IMG/VR virus record: IMGVR_UViG_2531839449_000010
Span: 1-8,488 of that record
Length of the DNA: 8,488 nt
Origin: a virus
Lineage: Duplodnaviria; Heunggongvirae; Uroviricota; Caudoviricetes
Direction: 5' to 3' (one strand)
Shown here: positions 1-6,554 of the stretch, in pieces
How positions within the stretch are numbered: position 1 is the stretch's first letter
Layout of the letters: each line of letters begins with the position of its first letter
The notes under the pieces: model-generated
Seen by the model: the letters and a program-made list of their open reading frames with translations, nothing else
What the model was told of the DNA's origin: nothing
Databases searched by the model: none
Made by a program: the position numbers and the translations under genes

Positions 1-395
1 AGCTGGTCAGGTCGTTCTGCCACGAACTGACGGTTTACGCGGTCGCCTGCGGCAACGGCTTTCCGGCTGATGGTCGTACGGACCTTTTTACCCCGGAGAA
101 CACCGGCAAGTCCCATAACCGCCATGAGACGTGCCACTGTACATCTGGCCACCCTGATTCCTTCCCGTAACAACTGACGCCAGACTTTACGCACACCGTA
201 CACCTGATGATTTTCATCGTATACGCGCTGTATCTCTCTCTTCAGCCAGTCGTCGTGCTGCGCACGGGCACTGCGTTTATCCGGATGATGTCGCTGTTGC
301 TGACAATGGTAATACGTTGACGGGGCAATATGCAGTTCGCTGCATACCGGTCCGACCCCGTACTGCTCACGCAGCTTATCCAGCAGTGGCATCAT
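1..395 (-). CDS. IS3-family transposase OrfB (DDE integrase-type), N-terminal part only; normally expressed as an OrfAB fusion by -1 frameshift
   Basis: Hand translation of the rc from 395 gives [132 protein letters not shown], open to the window edge. It is in the -1 frame relative to orfA and is absent from the ORF track because no stop lies in the window. Confidence 0.8.
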
Positions 396-718
396 TTTTT
401 CCAGAGGCGGTCGAACTCCGCCTTCGCAAAATAAGCGGAAGCCTGGCGAAGGATATCGTTACTGCGGCGCAGTTCACGATTTTCACGTTCCAGCTCTTTC
501 AGACGCTGACGTTCAGCGCTGGTGAGCCCACCATCACCGCCCCCGGTATCCCGCTCATGCTGGCGAACCCAGACACGCAGAGTCTCCGGCGTACAGCCAA
601 TCTTTGGGGCAATGGAGCAAATTGCCGCCCACTGTGAGTCATATTCATCCTGACTTTCCAGAACCATACGAATCGCCCGCTGACGGACTTCGGGGGAAAA
701 ACGAGTATTTTTAGTCAT
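392..718 (-). CDS. IS3-family transposase OrfA (helix-turn-helix DNA-binding subunit)
   Basis: 108-aa [33 protein letters not shown]..., identical to the right-hand copy at 7942..8268. C-terminal leucine-rich heptad region ([20 protein letters not shown]) is typical of IS3 OrfA. AGG at 731..733, 9 nt upstream of the ATG, is a possible Shine-Dalgarno. Confidence 0.9.
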
Positions 719-723
719 CCTGT

Positions 724-1326
724 TTACCTCTTTCTCAGGGAGTTTAGTCTCCAGGATTTCCGGGGCGGTTCAACCATCTCAATGGATGGTGTTCCGCATT
801 GGTTACCCCAGACATCAAATCCATGCGAGGTGTGACGGGCGAACAGTTCTATCCGGGGAACATCGCCAAGAAGTTGCACAAGTTTTTCTCGCGCCATATC
901 CGGCTTGCGGGAGTGATCAAGGCGCGGTGCAGTGAATGACTGGATTATTCCGGCGTTAATGCGTTCAGGCAGATTTCCTTTCACTGCAAAAAGGCAGTCT
1001 TCGCTGTTAGCGCGAGTGGTGCTACCCATACCCATGACCAGCTTGTCGGTCTGTCTTTTCCCGCATTTGTTCCAGGTTAATCCTTTCATCGTCACCAGAC
1101 GAAAGCCCCACGCTTCTACAACCTTCAATGCTTCAAGTGGTTGTGTAGGCACCCACCACATAGCCAACAGGCAATTATCGGCTGCCAGTTCCCATACCGG
1201 GAGGCGGCAGATATCCAGAAGACTCATGACCGGATATTTAAAACTTGCACCGCGTTGACCATCGGTTGCTTTGTCTCGGAATGTCCAGGGGGGATCTGCG
1301 TAAATGAGAGTGTATTTTTTCGTCAT
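724..1326 (-). CDS. MT-A70-family DNA N6-adenine methyltransferase (phage orphan methylase); 3' end interrupted by the IS, so residues 186-200 are IS-encoded
   Basis: N-terminal motif LIYADPPW (catalytic DPPW). The ATG at 1324..1326 overlaps the stop of the upstream gene (ATGA). The reading frame crosses the IS boundary at 772/773; the tail [15 protein letters not shown] is translated from IS terminal sequence. Confidence 0.8.
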
Positions 1327-1526
1327 AGCGCGTTTTCAAACTCATCAATGTAAAGTGCAACAAGTGCAACGCATCGTCTGAAATCGGCTGCGTCATGTGG
1401 AGCACCGAAGCTATGACCATAGATATTCTTTTTCAGTCCACATGCGATTGAGGCAAGAGTTGCGCTACTGATGCCAACATCGCCAGTCGATTGCCATTTC
1501 AAAACCTTCATAGCCAAATCTGACAT
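1323..1526 (-). CDS. hypothetical small prophage protein (67 aa)
   Basis: ATG at 1524..1526 preceded by GGAGA at a 7-nt spacing. Stop overlaps the methyltransferase start (ATGA), suggesting translational coupling. Confidence 0.55.
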   Translation of the reverse strand: MSDLAMKVLKWQSTGDVGISSATLASIACGLKKNIYGHSFGAPHDAADFRRCVALVALYIDEFENAL

Positions 1527-1539
1527 TTCTTGTCTCCAT

Positions 1540-1563
1540 AAAACAAAACCCGCCGTAGCGAGT
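1540..1563 (-). terminator. candidate intrinsic terminator (distal of a tandem pair)
   Basis: Minus-strand RNA ACUCGC-UACG-GCGGGU forms a 6-bp stem (one G.U) with a tetraloop, followed by UUUGUUUU. Lies between the stop at 1645 and the next start at 1526. Confidence 0.4.
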
Positions 1564-1566
1564 TCA

Positions 1567-1594
1567 GATAAAAGAAATCCCCGCGAGTGCGAGG
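1567..1594 (-). terminator. candidate intrinsic terminator (proximal of a tandem pair)
   Basis: Minus-strand RNA CCUCGC-ACUC-GCGGGG forms a 6-bp stem (one G.U) with a tetraloop, followed by AUUUCUUUUAUC. Same stem design as the hairpin at 1540..1563. Confidence 0.4.
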
Positions 1595-1644
1595 ATTGTT
1601 ATTCATTGCCGATATTCACCTTTATCGCGAACACCTTTACCGGT

Positions 1645-1887
1645 TTATCTCCTTTGCATGGCGCGTAATTTTTTCAGATGGTTCTCCTGCTCTGTTTCAG
1701 CCAGAATTTGTCGGTATTCCTGGTGATCGATCCGTTCAAACAGTTCATTAAAATCGTTTATTTTTACCGACTGTGTTCGCCCATCCATTCTTCTGTACAA
1801 CACAGTGTTGTTTATGCAGCGAAGAATTTTTATCGGGTAGCCGGCGCTATCGGTGTATATCTGACCACGTTGAATCAGAGCGAACAT
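1645..1887 (-). CDS. hypothetical small prophage protein (80 aa from the ATG at 1887; the track ORF extends to a TTG at 1941)
   Basis: Open frame 1645..1941. The TTG at 1941 has AGGAG directly abutting it (spacing too short), so I prefer the internal ATG at 1885..1887 (MFALIQRGQIY...). The start is uncertain. Confidence 0.4.
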   Translation of the reverse strand: MFALIQRGQIYTDSAGYPIKILRCINNTVLYRRMDGRTQSVKINDFNELFERIDHQEYRQILAETEQENHLKKLRAMQRR

Positions 1888-1961
1888 TCCTTTATCCCCA
1901 GCGGAAAAGCGAATACAGAATAAATGCCACCGCGATTGCAACTCCTACAGCGGTGAATGCT

Positions 1962-2312
1962 TCAGGCCAATTCATCATTCACTCCCTGCGGCGGTTCTGG
2001 TAGCAGCATCCAGTACAAGGCGTTCCCTAACCACGATAAAGTGCCGTCGCTCAACTCCACGTATTCCTCTTGTACCTGTCCTGCCATATACTCACCGTGC
2101 TTTGAATAAATTAAAATCCAATCATCTTGAGCGGGCATTCGCTCACTACAGCTTATCCAACCACCCGGACTTACCGGAGAGTTGCCAGTCTTACGCATGG
2201 CAATCTCCACGATTTCAACCATATCTCCTGGCAGAATTTTACAAAGCTGGCCAAAGCGCCTCTGCTGCCTGGCATACTCGAGGATGTGCTCCAGTTTGGT
2301 TCGATTAATCAT
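1962..2312 (-). CDS. DUF551-like prophage protein (115 aa)
   Basis: C-terminal segment GWISCSERMPAQDDWILIY...GEYMAG...YWMLLPEPP resembles the DUF551 pattern (WIS..ERLP...W.PLPEPP) as I recall it. ATG at 2310..2312 overlaps the upstream stop (ATGA). Confidence 0.5.
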   Translation of the reverse strand: MINRTKLEHILEYARQQRRFGQLCKILPGDMVEIVEIAMRKTGNSPVSPGGWISCSERMPAQDDWILIYSKHGEYMAGQVQEEYVELSDGTLSWLGNALYWMLLPEPPQGVNDELA

Positions 2313-2764
2313 GATTTATCTCCCTTAAGCATGGCAGCGCGGCAGGCATCCTCTACGCCCTTAACTGCATCTGCGCAGTAGTTATAGCGATTGCATTCCA
2401 CTAACTTCTGCTTGAGGTTTTCAATTGCTTGCGCGACATCAGCCTGTATTACCGGAACTGGCGGAGTGGTATATAGTTTTCGGCATTTGTTTATCCAACC
2501 GGCATGGTCAGGCGTGTCTGTAAAGCGCAAATCGTTTTCGTAGCCCTCACGACTACGTTCTTTCCATTCCGTCCACGGAACACCGCTATTCCAAGTGGGG
2601 CGAGTGCAGGACTGATACAGAACAGGTTCAGCTTCCAGCGCTGCCAGAGCAATCCGTGCCAGTTCTTCCGCTTCTTCTGCTGGCAGTACAACGTTGCTAC
2701 CAGGTCCGTATGTTTCGCGCCACTGCTTGATTGTCAGCAGTCGCTCTTTGGTAATAGTGGTCAT
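2309..2764 (-). CDS. hypothetical prophage early-region protein (151 aa)
   Basis: ATG at 2762..2764 preceded by GAGGA at a 7-nt spacing and overlapping the upstream stop (ATGA). No family recognised. Confidence 0.55.
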   Translation of the reverse strand: MTTITKERLLTIKQWRETYGPGSNVVLPAEEAEELARIALAALEAEPVLYQSCTRPTWNSGVPWTEWKERSREGYENDLRFTDTPDHAGWINKCRKLYTTPPVPVIQADVAQAIENLKQKLVECNRYNYCADAVKGVEDACRAAMLKGDKS

Positions 2765-2970
2765 TTGTTAATCCTCAAAACTTTATGCCCGGGCGCAAAA
2801 GCACGCGTTTTGTCTTTGCTTATTCGCCAGCCATCCTTGCGCGCCTCTTTTGCACAGCCAGCCCATGACGTACCTATATACTCACCGAAGTCTGGCGACT
2901 TATATTTGCCATCTGTACACTGGAGGCAATCACAATAGAGATGCATGGTGTAACTTGCAGCAATAGCCAT
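2761..2970 (-). CDS. small cysteine-rich (putative zinc-binding) prophage protein, 69 aa from the internal ATG
   Basis: The track ORF 2761..3042 overlaps the upstream gene. The ATG at 2968..2970 (MAIAASYTMHLYCDCLQCTDGKYK...) has a strong AAGGAGAG Shine-Dalgarno 6 nt upstream and sits 1 nt after the upstream stop. Contains a C-x-C-x2-C ... C pattern. Confidence 0.55.
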   Translation of the reverse strand: MAIAASYTMHLYCDCLQCTDGKYKSPDFGEYIGTSWAGCAKEARKDGWRISKDKTRAFAPGHKVLRINK

Positions 2971-2971
2971 A

Positions 2972-3319
2972 TCACTCTCCTTTAGTGCGCAAGTGGTTTT
3001 TCCAGCGGTTTTGCTCCGCGCTGGGCTTTTTGCAAAAACCACAATCCATCATCCCGTAATATTTCATCAACCCCATCCGTCGGTTGCTGAGTCTCACCCA
3101 CTGCCAGACGCCAGGAGCGTTTCTACGAACTAACAGAATCTTTGCTTTACGGTTTTTCATCGTTTTGCTCTCCTGCATCTCTTTGCTGCTCGTCGTGCCG
3201 CTGCAATACCGGTATGGCGGCGCTTTGGTGTCGGGATGATGTTCTTTGCAATTAGCGCAGAAGCCCAAAAACGAGTCGGATACGGTAACAAACTGATACA
3301 TGCCACACGCATTACTCAC
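2972..3319 (-). CDS. cysteine-rich putative zinc-finger protein; start uncertain (GTG at 3319 gives 115 aa, ATG at 3161 gives 63 aa)
   Basis: Continuous open frame with Cys pairs (FCANCKEHH...YRYCSG and MMDCGFCKK). The GTG at 3317..3319 overlaps the upstream stop by 8 nt but has a poorly spaced AAAGGGGG. The internal ATG at 3159..3161 has a strong AGGAGAG at a 7-nt spacing. Confidence 0.45.
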   Translation of the reverse strand: MSNACGMYQFVTVSDSFLGFCANCKEHHPDTKAPPYRYCSGTTSSKEMQESKTMKNRKAKILLVRRNAPGVWQWVRLSNRRMGLMKYYGMMDCGFCKKPSAEQNRWKNHLRTKGE

Positions 3320-3860
3320 CCCCTTTGTTGCTAATGCTTACAGCCTGGCAAGCCTCTTTGAGTACCCAGTCAACAGCGTCTTTCCATGCTCCGGTTTCAA
3401 CAGATGGATTCTCACGCTTTACCTGTTCATAAAAGCGCACTGCTTTAATCAGTTCTTCCGGTACTACTGGCGATGCCTGTTTAGCTTCTAAATCAGCAAT
3501 TCTGTCAACCACGGCATCTACTGCATCTGAAAAACTGAAACAGTTACTCCATTCCGGCCTGTCCCCGGTTGCTGCAAAATACATATCAGCTAAAGCAGAC
3601 TCAGCATGGTCACGCTCATTAATGAGTTGCTCTTCGCTTTTCTCCTGTTCGGCTATGCGCTTACTTCCATCCGCGATTACTCCCTCGTAATACTCACGCT
3701 GCTCGTTGAGTTTTGATTTTGCTGCTTCCAACTCATCCAGTAGCGCCAGCACAACCTGAGGTGTGGCTTTCATACGAAATGCCAGCAATTTTTGAGGCGT
3801 TGCTACTGTTTCAATTGCTACTGCCGCCTCACGCAGTGCCTGGTAATTAATTTCGCTCAC
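3312..3860 (-). CDS. Ead/Ea22-like prophage protein (182 aa, GTG start)
   Basis: N-terminus (V/M)SEINYQALREAA... is the Ead/Ea22-like family signature as I recall it, followed by a coiled-coil-like charged heptad region. AAGGAGG lies 6 nt upstream of the GTG at 3858..3860, which overlaps the upstream stop (GTGA). Confidence 0.6.
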   Translation of the reverse strand: MSEINYQALREAAVAIETVATPQKLLAFRMKATPQVVLALLDELEAAKSKLNEQREYYEGVIADGSKRIAEQEKSEEQLINERDHAESALADMYFAATGDRPEWSNCFSFSDAVDAVVDRIADLEAKQASPVVPEELIKAVRFYEQVKRENPSVETGAWKDAVDWVLKEACQAVSISNKGGE

Positions 3861-4621
3861 TGGTTGCCTCCTTTGCGAAGCTCAGCGGCGAAAGATGTTG
3901 CTGCGGAAGCGATAATTGCATGCCGGTATTCACCATCAGAAAATAAAGAATCTCCCTTAAGTGCATTGACGATACTCTGATGATTTTTTGCCAGCATCTC
4001 CACGCCCTGCGCCCGTACTTCAGCCAGGCATTTGCGAAACTCGGAAACGTACTGTTCGACGCTCATTCCCCAGCTAAGTGGACATTCATTGAATGTTTCG
4101 CCTTCGTGCTCTTCATCAGGTAGCTCTTTGGTAAAGAACTCACGCTCAATGGCGTGGAGTGTGTCAGCAAAACGACGTAAGTTACTCAAACCTACCGTAA
4201 TGGAGAATTCAGGAGCATCACATCCGACGCCCATCTGCTGATAAACTGCTGTTTTGAAGGCCTTCAACTCCGCATTCTCCGCCGCCAGAGCCGAAAACTT
4301 CTCGTGTGCCAACTTAACAGCCGAATCAGCCTGCTTAATTGACTCAATCGCTTTCTGTTGGTCTTCGGCCAGCTTCGCTAAATTAGCCTCCAGTTCGGCC
4401 ATGCGTTCGTTTAATGCATCTCGTTCATCCAGTAGTGACAGCACGGTTTCTGGCCCGGCCATAATTTTAAAGGCGTGAATCGCATCAATATCAATACCAA
4501 GCTCCTTGAGCTTCTTTTCGCTTAATAAATCATCATCACCTGGTAATATTGACAGATGTGTCATCGCTGTAATTGCGCGTTCCGACACGTCACGCAATAC
4601 CTGATAGTCAATTTTGCTCAC
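3857..4621 (-). CDS. Ead/Ea22-like prophage protein, second tandem paralog (254 aa from the GTG at 4621)
   Basis: The track ORF 3857..4969 (370 aa) is over-extended. The in-frame GTG at 4619..4621 (VSKIDYQVLRDVSERA...) has the same AAGGAGGCAACCA-GTG initiation context as the paralog at 3860. The upstream stretch 4622..4969 is accounted for by two other coupled genes. Confidence 0.55.
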   Translation of the reverse strand: MSKIDYQVLRDVSERAITAMTHLSILPGDDDLLSEKKLKELGIDIDAIHAFKIMAGPETVLSLLDERDALNERMAELEANLAKLAEDQQKAIESIKQADSAVKLAHEKFSALAAENAELKAFKTAVYQQMGVGCDAPEFSITVGLSNLRRFADTLHAIEREFFTKELPDEEHEGETFNECPLSWGMSVEQYVSEFRKCLAEVRAQGVEMLAKNHQSIVNALKGDSLFSDGEYRHAIIASAATSFAAELRKGGNQ

Positions 4622-4856
4622 TGGTTGCCTCCTTTGTGGATCTGCGCTGCGATGCACGAAAAAAAGATTCCCGCGTATGACAGTTAAGAGCTGGTGCGAA
4701 AGCCGCGTTAAGAACGGCAGCATCACAGCCGTCATCGATATAGAGCGCAATTTTTTTCTCCAGGCGCGCTTTGGCTTCCTGCAACTGCATACCCCGGCAC
4801 GTACGCGGGATATACTCAGCAATTTGAGCGATAGATTTTTCGTTCTGTTTAAACAT
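4608..4856 (-). CDS. hypothetical small prophage protein (82 aa)
   Basis: ATG at 4854..4856 overlaps the upstream stop by 8 nt (ATGTTTAA). Its own stop lies 14 nt inside the next gene. No family recognised. Confidence 0.5.
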   Translation of the reverse strand: MFKQNEKSIAQIAEYIPRTCRGMQLQEAKARLEKKIALYIDDGCDAAVLNAAFAPALNCHTRESFFRASQRRSTKEATSEQN

Positions 4857-5052
4857 GCTTCACCTCGACAGGCTTGATTGTGTCGATCAGCAGTCTGCGG
4901 CGCGTATTTTCTGCAAAGTGGCGGCGTCCGGTTTCTTTGTGGTAAAACTCGTTTTTGCCGACGACCCACATCCGCTCTGTCTGGTGAAGTTTTTTTACCT
5001 GCGGGCCGCCTTTGGTGATCACAATGCCGGTATGGGTTTTTACGATTGTCAT
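4849..5052 (-). CDS. hypothetical small prophage protein (67 aa)
   Basis: ATG at 5050..5052 overlaps the PAPS-reductase-like stop (ATGA), with GAGG 9 nt upstream. No family recognised. Confidence 0.5.
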   Translation of the reverse strand: MTIVKTHTGIVITKGGPQVKKLHQTERMWVVGKNEFYHKETGRRHFAENTRRRLLIDTIKPVEVKHV

Positions 5053-5927
5053 GCCACTACCTCTTCGAATTTCAACTCCAATTGGTCACCCCAGATTTCA
5101 CATGATTCGGAACACGAACCAGTATCAAACCGCTTGGCCAGCACCATCGCTTGATACAAATTGCTGTAGTCGCTGTCGGCATACATCCTGGCAATCCCGT
5201 CAAGCGTCAGGTGACCACGGTACATAACGTCTTTACCTGTTCTGCGATGACCATCCCTGACGTGTTTGCCTGTAACCAGTTCATTAAAAACCCGCATCAG
5301 ACCAGGTTCGTCTTTACATGCAAGCCCCAGCTTTTGCGTTGACTTTTTGATGCAGAAAACACAGTTCCCGAGGTGCTCCGGGATTTGCAAATCAAAAGGT
5401 TGTTTTCGCCACCACCGGATAACATCCGACTTATCAAAATCTGACAGTTCGGCAAGATACCGGACGCCCGGTTTCGGTTTCAGCCTACGGGGTTCGTCTG
5501 CACGAATACCCAGCCACGTGATGTAGTTCCCTTGTCCGAAATGGTCATCGCAGTATTTTGTGAAGGGGGTGAGTTTTAATCTGTCAGTGCAGAACGCGCC
5601 GCCGATGTATGGCGTGCCATATTTTTTTACCATGTCCATAAACGGTTTAAGCACCGGCATTCGCGTCTGAATATCCTTTGGTTCCCATTCCGTATAACCA
5701 TTTGGCTGCCCAAGCTCTGGATTTATATCGACCTGCAACACGGTTAGCGGAATATCCCAGAACTTCACAACCTCCCGAATAAACCGGTACGTCAGCGGGT
5801 GTTCACATCCCGTATCCATGAGTATGTAATGAACGTTTTCACCAGCTTTTCTGCGTTGCTCCATAAGGTGGACGAGGTACGCCGATGTCCGACCGCCTGA
5901 AAAACTCACAACATGATGAGTGCTCAT
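5049..5927 (-). CDS. phosphoadenosine-phosphosulfate (PAPS) reductase-like PP-loop ATP-pyrophosphatase family protein (292 aa)
   Basis: N-terminal PP-loop motif VVSFSGGRTSAYL (SGGxxS). C-terminal cysteine pairs (CVFC, CSESC). Complete ORF starting at the ATG at 5925..5927. Confidence 0.8.
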   Translation of the reverse strand: MSTHHVVSFSGGRTSAYLVHLMEQRRKAGENVHYILMDTGCEHPLTYRFIREVVKFWDIPLTVLQVDINPELGQPNGYTEWEPKDIQTRMPVLKPFMDMVKKYGTPYIGGAFCTDRLKLTPFTKYCDDHFGQGNYITWLGIRADEPRRLKPKPGVRYLAELSDFDKSDVIRWWRKQPFDLQIPEHLGNCVFCIKKSTQKLGLACKDEPGLMRVFNELVTGKHVRDGHRRTGKDVMYRGHLTLDGIARMYADSDYSNLYQAMVLAKRFDTGSCSESCEIWGDQLELKFEEVVA

Positions 5928-6034
5928 TTCTTCGTCTCGTTACGGGGAGGGGGTTAAATAGGTGGTAAGCTGGAATTGCCGGATGTTTACCCGTGTCCGG
6001 GGTACGGCCTCACGTTGCAGCGTACGAGAATGGA

Positions 6035-6478
6035 CTATTGCTCAGTGTCGTTTGATGTCGGCTGAGGATATTCGCCTTGCTCTTGTAACAGAGTTAGAAG
6101 AATGGAAAACCCCTCACGATGTGATGATTGATGAGTGTCGATCCCGGAATGATTGATGTTGTTAAATTCCAACATCGTGCTCCTGGCGATAGCCTCAACG
6201 GTATTCCAGAATACTAATACATCTGTTTTCTGCTCTGTTTTATCAGCAACAGGAAGTTTGATATTTTGTTGAAATTTATTAATGCAACCATTTTGAATAT
6301 GTTCCTCGTGCTTTTCATTGTCATAAGCATACAGCCCGACAAAAACATCTCGCACGTTACGGGATATATTTTCCAGATTCGCCTTTGGTTCCTTTGTTAA
6401 ATCAAGCACCGATAAATGGGCTTTAAGCGTATCCGCAGCTATTTTCTGAATATCCTCTGGTAAATCTTTAAATTGCAT
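6035..6478 (-). CDS. hypothetical protein (147 aa), AT-rich moron-like gene
   Basis: ATG at 6476..6478 with GGAGGG at a 7-nt spacing. Hand count gives about 37% GC for 6181..6480, against about 45-50% in neighbouring genes. No family recognised. Confidence 0.55.
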   Translation of the reverse strand: MQFKDLPEDIQKIAADTLKAHLSVLDLTKEPKANLENISRNVRDVFVGLYAYDNEKHEEHIQNGCINKFQQNIKLPVADKTEQKTDVLVFWNTVEAIARSTMLEFNNINHSGIDTHQSSHREGFSILLTLLQEQGEYPQPTSNDTEQ

Positions 6479-6554
6479 AGTATACCCTCCAAGAACTGTG
6501 TATTTTCTCGTGAAATATGAGCGATATGTCGTGACGTCCCTGTCACAGATTTCA

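Follow-up and report, generated by a model that had tools for sequence, protein, structure and literature searches.

Small accessory genes 3' of ea22 in a Shiga toxin phage-like prophage segment: a putative metal-binding protein, a very basic protein and a probable third gene

The minus strand of an 8,488-nucleotide (nt) stretch of phage DNA (IMG/VR virus record IMGVR_UViG_2531839449_000010, positions 1 to 8,488; hereafter the window, whose positions are used throughout) carries at 2761–3312 three tandem small genes, in the order open reading frame (ORF) C, ORF B and ORF A, directly 3' of an orthologue of the lambda gene ea22. All genes relevant here lie on that strand. The explanation that best accounts for the data, to which we assign a probability of about 0.6, is that these are three independent small genes: ORF A, whose product would hold a single metal site, ORF B, encoding a basic non-zinc protein, and ORF C, a probable gene. 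All three are common accessory phage genes of the "hypothetical" class. The initial annotation of this DNA had described two adjacent small ORFs with paired cysteines at 2761–3319; both are indeed present, but a third ORF in another frame (3157–3312) had been missed. The cysteine spacings it listed are also there, namely C13-D-C15-L-Q-C18 in ORF A and C21-A-N-C24 and C93-G-F-C96 in a 115-amino acid (aa) reading of ORF B. The features are as follows.

2761..2970, minus strand: ORF A, 69 aa, ATG 2970–2968, TGA 2763–2761; putative metal-binding protein (3 Cys + 1 His)
2972..3160, minus strand: ORF B, 62 aa, ATG 3160–3158, TGA 2974–2972; very basic protein
3157..3312, minus strand: ORF C (probable gene), 51 aa, ATG 3312–3310, TGA 3159–3157; arginine-rich, in a frame other than that of ORF B
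3312..3860, minus strand: ea22 orthologue (Ead/Ea22-like, 182 aa), TAA 3314–3312; anchors the genomic position of the module
2977..2982, minus strand: Shine-Dalgarno sequence AAGGAG of ORF A, 6 nt before ATG 2970, within the last codons of ORF B
3174–3170, minus strand: Shine-Dalgarno sequence AGGAG of ORF B, read from the DNA
3161..3319, minus strand: rejected 5' extension of ORF B (GTG 3319 start), non-coding in the ORF B frame
2917..2934, minus strand: putative N-terminal metal knuckle of ORF A, codons C13-D14-C15-L-Q-C18
2785..2793, minus strand: ORF A codons P60-G61-H62, H62 being the presumed fourth ligand; C-P-x-C/H in relatives

Read from the DNA, the genes are packed end to end: ea22 and ORF C share an A in TAATG, ORF C and ORF B overlap in ATGA, ORF B and ORF A are joined as TGAnATG, and ORF A runs into the next gene through ATGA at 2764–2761. 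Each of the three starts has its own Shine-Dalgarno sequence, a G-run in the case of ORF C, and scans for promoters and terminators on the coding strand and for Rfam families found none within the module. Because the starts and stops overlap or abut and neither promoter nor terminator lies between them, the three genes are most likely co-transcribed and translationally coupled. A mechanical ORF list renders the same region as 2761–3042 (93 aa, GTG start), 2972–3319 (115 aa, GTG) and 3157–3312 (51 aa, ATG).

The 93-aa form of ORF A, from GTG 3042, is spurious. The start at ATG 2970 is backed by the family alignment, by the Prokaryotic Genome Annotation Pipeline (PGAP), whose product WP_000951706.1 is the same 69 aa, and by the AAGGAG 6 nt upstream; all close homologues (46 clusters) begin M-(A/I)-I-A-A, and it is this shared N-terminus that fixes the 69-aa start. 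ORF A corresponds to PHROG 926 (E = 1.5e-36, residues 1–69 on profile positions 1–69 of 69), and a profile search of 1.84 billion representative proteins returned 397 clusters, defined at 50% identity, at E ≤ 0.001, nearly all of 60–80 aa. In one 134-aa database entry a second ORF A copy follows the first in head-to-tail fusion, which is either an assembly artefact or a genuine tandem duplication that is read through. No Pfam family was found for ORF A (E up to 1) or for 101 family members (E up to 0.01), and no NCBIfam family. Scans of all three products and the 101 ORF A relatives against Pfam, NCBIfam and PHROG matched function-less PHROGs only; the profile searches that the initial annotation had proposed as a check found families, but no Pfam or NCBIfam zinc family above cut-off.

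Conservation and covariation both point to a metal site in ORF A. C13, C15, C18 and H62 are invariant in 14 clean close relatives, and the fourth cysteine, C39, is not. Among 130 diverse relatives C13 is found in 128, C18 in 103 and C15 in 69; position 62 is occupied by His in 82 and by Cys in 44 (one or the other in 126), and P60 and W48 are kept in 118 and 127, respectively. C15 and a cysteine at position 59 are mutually exclusive (C15 only in 65, C59 only in 58, both in 4 and neither in 3; Fisher test, 4e-28). Where C15 is present, residue 59 is Ala and residue 62 usually His; where C15 is missing, residue 59 is Cys and residue 62 Cys or His. Exactly four ligands among positions 13, 15, 18, 59 and 62 occur in 102 of the 130 relatives; a further 23 have three, most of these with a His a few residues after C13. 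The two ligand types do not form two clades: with the ligand columns masked, identity is 0.31 and 0.34 within the types and 0.31 between them, in 28 of 123 cases a sequence has its nearest neighbour in the other type, and a crude tree requires at least 25 switches.

Because one ligand repeatedly relocates in a compensatory way (C15/C59), with exchange of H62 and C62 besides, C13, C15, C18 and H62 most likely constitute a single, putative four-ligand metal site, the conserved set of four being that of a structural zinc-binding small protein, and the metal is most likely zinc. We regard the same pattern as good indirect evidence that residues 13–18 and 59–62 meet around a metal. Weighing against this assignment, the predicted proximity of the two segments has covariation as its one source, the covariation statistics ignore phylogeny, and the tree behind the switch count is a crude one for sequences of 60 aa. 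In the arrangement we propose, a tetrahedral metal ion, probably Zn2+, would be held by C13, C15, C18 and H62, with geometry and identity as we presume them here. The ion would join the C-terminal tail of a small beta-beta-alpha-beta-beta domain to its N-terminal strand and knuckle, so that the site would be structural, and a conserved basic face (A43-R44...G47-W48-R49-I50-S51-x-D53...R56) would bind a host or phage macromolecule in lytic growth.

The initial annotation had suggested zinc-ribbon or zinc-finger folds and had proposed structure prediction as a further check. The AlphaFold model of ORF A is moderate (predicted local distance difference test score, pLDDT, 78; predicted template modelling score, pTM, 0.58) and describes a small alpha/beta domain with one long helix, in which no zinc ribbon or classical zinc finger is recognisable. 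Searches of the PDB with the single sequence and with the profile, and structure searches, found no significant solved relative, and the structure searches found no zinc-ribbon structure matching ORF A. In place of the two CxxC/CPxC knuckles of a zinc ribbon the protein has C-x-C-x2-C and one His, and a C-P-x-C second knuckle appears only in relatives of type II, one of the two ligand types. For ORF A the earlier interpretation is supported as regards conserved ligands, but the suggested folds are not recognisable.

The same residues might instead hold iron or an iron-sulfur cluster, as in CDGSH proteins, which would make ORF A a redox or oxidative-stress sensor; three Cys and one His, with Cys4 variants, are chemically compatible with Fe or [2Fe-2S] as well as with Zn. 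We regard this as improbable. The CDGSH 3Cys-1His [2Fe-2S] motif is C-x-C-x2-(S/T)-x3-P-x-C-D-G-(S/A/T)-H, a C-x-C-x8-C-x3-H spacing, whereas ORF A has C-x-C-x2-C...x43...H, with its His 43 residues after the third Cys. Neither ORF A nor the 101 relatives scanned match Pfam zf-CDGSH or any other Fe-S family, and single structural Zn sites are generally far commoner in phage proteins of 60–70 aa. The biological setting offers the iron reading some context, in that hydrogen-peroxide induction of Stx (Shiga toxin) prophages depends on the exo-xis region according to passages of PMC4699033, but Phi24B, the Stx phage of the peroxide work and of most functional work, is without this module.

A structural zinc site, which we prefer for ORF A, would place it among the small zinc-binding accessory proteins of lambdoid phages, and one of these is lambda Ea8.5. 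Ea8.5 combines homeodomain and zinc finger in a hybrid fold (Kwan et al. 2013, cited in PMC4195576 and PMC8614690), and the initial annotation's description of it as a zinc-finger fusion agrees with PMC4195576. Like ORF A with its putative zinc site, it is a small zinc-binding accessory protein whose gene lies directly 3' of ea22 in the pL operon (exo-xis block), and the genomic position of ORF A is that of Ea8.5. As a candidate relative it was rejected, with a profile score of about 0 bits against lambda Ea8.5 and no solved Ea8.5 homologue in the PDB searches; neither ORF A nor ORF B is related to Ea8.5. Lambda Orf73, which acts on RNA polymerase, resembles TraR and is a C4 zinc-finger protein (PMC9239242). 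Orf73 and F-plasmid TraR have a DksA-like C4 zinc finger, a coiled coil followed by the finger, from which ORF A differs both in predicted fold and in ligand pattern (C-x-C-x2-C...H as against the C4 of TraR/DksA), and neither ORF A nor 100 relatives match Pfam zf-dskA_traR. A third candidate came from the profile itself, which matched plant zinc-finger homeodomains (ZF-HD) at E = 0.006, the match being limited to the helix and GWRI. ORF A is too short for a homeodomain and has only one long helix in its model, and a metalloproteinase that has fibronectin type II repeats is matched spuriously nine times by the same motif; we consider the ZF-HD match a motif coincidence.

By tblastn the ORF A family is found in 433 phage records, and its carriers are Stx and other lambdoid phages, several siphoviruses and virulent Ackermannviridae of about 150–160 kb that infect Salmonella, Klebsiella, Escherichia, Shigella and Dickeya. 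A homologue lies in the nin region of Kosakonia and Pantoea prophages, between the replication genes and ninB/ninE, and another 3' of the dCMP deaminase cluster in a Taipeivirus. In Ackermannviridae genomes the homologues are often unannotated (e.g. SFP10, Maynard and S118), and in Klebsiella phage Zahir the locus (3001–3195 of the compared stretch) is called on the opposite strand. Since virulent phages retain the family, the role of ORF A may lie in host takeover or lytic growth and not in the decision between lysis and lysogeny. The initial annotation's suggestion of regulators or host-takeover factors is, for the genes studied here, a guess. A broader proposal is that the family is a previously undescribed small zinc-binding fold with a repeatedly moved ligand (C15↔C59) and a conserved host-directed lytic function, the function being suggested because temperate lambdoid phages and strictly virulent Ackermannviridae both keep the gene. 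We put this forward tentatively, and as a whole judge it doubtful.

Of the two candidate starts that had been proposed for ORF B, GTG 3319 is rejected and the other, given as 3161, is the proximal ATG at 3160–3158; comparison of homologous sequences settles the start there. At 83 loci, the 220 nt that precede ORF B were compared. Relative to the window, an insertion of 21 nt is found in the most frequent alleles, and because it brings in an in-frame TGA the ORF B frame is closed in 14 of 17 distinct alleles; a conserved product of 115 aa is thereby excluded. What homologues share with the long form is its last 62 residues only, the upstream parts of database entries being mutually unrelated, and in the ORF B frame the 5' extension has a ratio of nonsynonymous to synonymous differences (pN/pS) of about 1. 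GTG 3319 itself lies within a G-run that would have to be its own Shine-Dalgarno sequence, the same run that serves ORF C.

These results bear directly on the idea of two zinc-ribbon or zinc-finger proteins, the second being the 115-aa product of GTG 3319, in which both CxxC pairs would make up a single Cys4 site. In the window's allele the long frame is indeed open, with C21-x2-C24 and C93-x2-C96, and the long form is called in two database entries (P0047 and P0048) and as VT2-Sa p08. Against this stand the closed and unrelated extensions just described, a GTG that lacks a spaced Shine-Dalgarno sequence, and a family whose members, 208 in a profile search, are typically 61–65 aa and start MKNRKAK. 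The distal pair (C40 and C43 of the 62-aa protein) is found complete in only 18 of 106 near-full-length cluster representatives, Glu and Lys being commonest at these positions, and the proximal pair lies in the 5' extension, outside the protein. We consider the Cys4 idea very improbable. The initial annotation had let its zinc reading depend on conservation of the cysteines among homologues. In ORF A they are conserved, as set out above; in ORF B they are not, for which reason the zinc idea fails there, and the ORF B family is, by this comparison, not one of zinc fingers. The earlier observation is confirmed in part, and its interpretation supported in part.

Even so, ORF B encodes a real protein, under purifying selection as judged from its sequence relatives. 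It corresponds to PHROG 1380 (E = 1.3e-39, residues 54–115 of the long form on profile positions 1–62 of 62) and to the PGAP product WP_000797281.1, and its relatives are found in Escherichia, Salmonella, Citrobacter, Enterobacter and Hafnia. We base the judgement on three observations: the motif SAAQNRWKNH is kept in distant copies despite synonymous (third-position) changes at 6–7 of its 10 codons, pairwise pN/pS is 0.3–0.8, and the starts and stops overlap neighbouring genes in unrelated contexts. Invariant or near-invariant positions are N3, R4, A6, S25-N26-R27, S47, A48, Q50-N51-R52-W53-K54 and H56. The protein is very basic (pI 11.1; 16 Lys + Arg against 3 Asp + Glu), and most plausibly, though with low confidence, its invariant motifs NRKAK, SNRR and SAAQNRWKNH, rich in Asn, Arg, Gln and Ser, would contact nucleic acid. 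Two points tell against this suggestion: the putative role is a reading of charge, composition and motifs, and the AlphaFold model, built from 18 sequences, is unreliable (pLDDT 53). No significant PDB match was obtained by profile, and the best single hits were uS14 and C2H2 fingers at E ≥ 0.5.

Diverged tandem ORF B paralogues occur in phiV10 (1399–1769 of the compared stretch), where the annotated start of p51 is too long, and in one E. marmotae-type prophage (about 2830–3198). The first copy of the tandem ends ...NRRKKGYAVR or ...NRREKGDAVR instead of ...NRWKNHLRTKGE.

The weak C2H2 hits leave one narrower zinc proposal for ORF B, that the window's allele (type 1) gained a lineage-specific C40-x2-C43-x12-H56 knuckle, a degenerate C2H2-like element. 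In its spacing and neighbouring residues it looks like a C2H2 finger, weak matches were obtained to fingers of ZFY and CTCF (E 0.5–4) and to zf-C2H2_jaz (E = 0.03), the low-confidence model has a beta-hairpin and a helix, and some alleles add a Cys after H56 (NHC). All of these matches, however, fall below significance or the curated cut-off (15 bits for zf-C2H2_jaz, under the Pfam cut-off of 22.6). In terms of the classical pattern C-x2-4-C-x12-H-x3-5-H the second His is absent, there being no fourth ligand at H+3 to +5, and close relatives replace C40 by G, S, H, V or M (P0108, P0113, P0116, P0122 and P0136) and C43 by S (P0113 and P0122). We think such a knuckle even less probable than an iron site in ORF A, and continue to read ORF B as a basic non-zinc protein.

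ORF C, the frame overlooked before, is in our estimate probably a real gene, with the odds clearly in its favour. It corresponds to PHROG 13831 (E = 2.3e-26, residues 1–51 on profile positions 1–58 of 58), and the 7-residue gap in that alignment is the 21-nt indel: the insertion adds seven codons to the ORF C frame, which stays open and yields the 58-aa form that defines the PHROG. This 58-aa allele is present on at least 1000 contigs. The frame is open in all 51 loci where ORF C was found, across 17 alleles that include 21-nt and 6-nt indels, and annotations of it exist in phiV10 (p49), in Dewey (CDS0026) and in many PGAP genomes. In pairwise comparisons its pN/pS is 0.18–0.92, against about 0.6–7 in the other two frames; it lies below at least one other frame in 7 of 7 pairs and below both in 5 of 7. 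In the predicted product (pI 12.0) the N-terminal half is hydrophobic and the tail rich in arginine.

Several observations pull the other way. Variable sites number 16, 11 and 8 at codon positions 3, 1 and 2, which is not significant alone, and PGAP leaves ORF C unannotated in some genomes. They fit the alternative that the 150 nt between ea22 and ORF B (3161–3311) are an untranslated spacer and ORF C a fortuitous open frame. The stretch is unannotated by PGAP in strain E2855 and in 933W, the codon-position bias is weak, the product is Ala/Arg-rich as is often so for off-frame readings of GC-rich DNA, and the frame is shifted in the virulent phage Av-05. A spacer, on the other hand, accounts poorly for a frame kept open in every allele through indels that are multiples of three, for a start and stop that overlap the flanking genes exactly, or for the low pN/pS, the PHROG membership and the annotations elsewhere, and no Rfam family or terminator is found in the stretch. 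We therefore hold the spacer to be unlikely, if the most serious of the alternatives considered here, and ORF C to be a probable gene. The remnant in Av-05, a member of the Vequintavirinae, lies at about 1217–1390 of the compared stretch, is unannotated and has 72% nucleotide identity. The ORF C frame still gives MRVAL.SLLPYP.RFW on one side of the shift and KRRTGIAAARRAAK on the other, and the remnant represents lambdoid accessory DNA in a strictly lytic phage.

The genes of the module travel separately. In 82 loci with a near-identical ORF B, a set that was not dereplicated, ORF A is adjacent in 37; a further 13 have it at a distance of about 1 kb, on one side or the other, and in 32 there is none within 2.5 kb. 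This variable adjacency rules out ORF A and ORF B as an obligate pair. Some copies of ORF B are found without ORF C, and some next to other genes, among them DUF4014, DUF4406, DUF551 and Ea22-like genes. Because adjacency and the upstream and downstream neighbours vary in this way, the compared loci identify the three genes as independent, shuffled accessory cassettes of lambdoid early regions and not as an obligate operon or system. DUF551 genes stand repeatedly beside ORF A and ORF B homologues in unrelated prophages, which may merely reflect shared accessory regions.

The setting is that of an Stx-phage-like lambdoid prophage, in the early-left (exo-xis) block of the pL operon, in keeping with the early region named by the initial annotation. 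The upstream 182-aa gene is a member of the Ead/Ea22 family (Pfam PF13935, E = 1e-10) and has the N-terminus and central segment in common with lambda Ea22, including the segments SEIN-QALREAA and AKSKLNEQREYYEGV. Since this ea22 orthologue lies directly upstream, the module occupies the place of lambda ea8.5 and orf55. The 700-nt region is 99.3% identical to prophages carried by Shiga toxin-producing E. coli strains and 98–99% identical to the Stx phages 933W, VT2-Sakai, Min27 and phage 86, and it is also found in P1-like phage-plasmids; the exact module protein sequences are on at least about 1000 public contigs. The window as a whole is a mosaic, covered in one piece to at most 77% in any complete E. 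coli genome.

The public records differ in how they call these genes. PGAP gives exactly the 62-aa and 69-aa products in strain E2855 and leaves the 150 nt upstream unannotated, and the original 933W record has ORF A only in its long form (L0068, 95 aa). Long starts that are likewise wrong are those of VT2-Sa p08 (155 aa, PHROG 12350) and phiV10 p51 (90 aa). The members of PHROG 926, 1380 and 13831 (933W L0068, VT2-Sa p07/p08 and phiV10 p49–p52) are the same proteins, with full-length matches.

Other parts of the window merit brief mention. A 601-nt inverted repeat of about 100% identity, at 172–772 and 7888–8488, brackets a 7.1-kb prophage segment; its arms are two inverted copies of an IS3-family insertion sequence (IS), each with a 108-aa orfA (392–718, minus strand, and 7942–8268, plus strand) and an ALIL frameshift pseudoknot (321–437 and 8223–8339). 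The arrangement resembles a composite element, or an inversion/deletion scar. An MT-A70 methyltransferase ORF (724–1326) was probably truncated by the insertion, since about 50 nt of it lie within the left repeat arm. The 370-aa mechanical ORF at 3857–4969 (minus strand) is not a single gene: its 3' two-thirds are a second Ea22-like gene (Pfam PF13935), and 4608–4856 and 4849–5052 correspond to distinct small genes in the annotation of strain E2855. Two ea22-type genes thus lie in tandem, and PGAP marks the copy equivalent to 3312–3860 as N-terminally incomplete. The remaining neighbours (5049–5927, 6555–7376 and 1962–2764) include a PAPS-reductase-family gene, a YfdQ/DUF2303 gene and DUF551-type genes.

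Two further points count against the overall interpretation. For none of the three families did Pfam, NCBIfam, PHROG, the PDB or the literature yield a functional annotation, a solved structure or an experiment, and the PHROG 926, 1380 and 13831, WP_000951706.1 and WP_000797281.1 entries assign no function. None of the three peptides appears in one ribosome-profiling (Ribo-seq) supplement for enterohaemorrhagic E. coli, which is uninformative because prophage early genes are repressed in lysogens. A literature search for the protein accessions and PHROG identifiers of the three ORFs found no mention of them, and these ORFs are treated neither in a modelling review of exo-xis proteins, which models others, nor in functional papers on that region. 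The review describes the genes 3' of ea22 as a set that varies and is uncharacterised.

The exo-xis block of Stx phages affects lysogenisation and prophage induction, and hence Shiga-toxin output, according to passages of PMC3824215, PMC4699033 and PMC8614690. The finding itself is an ordinary one of small accessory phage genes. Among them ORF A, judged from its sequence family, is credible as a small metal-binding protein, unusual in that one ligand is movable. It is of a kind already known, the small zinc-stabilised accessory phage proteins, though its large family is uncharacterised, and ORF C is an overlooked third ORF. What the analysis provides for 933W-type phages is corrected models for three genes that several reference records give with wrong long starts or omit, together with targets for experiment in the predicted metal site of ORF A (C13, C15, C18 and H62) and the invariant motifs of ORF B. 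That the ORF A family reaches virulent phages argues against a lysogeny-specific function.

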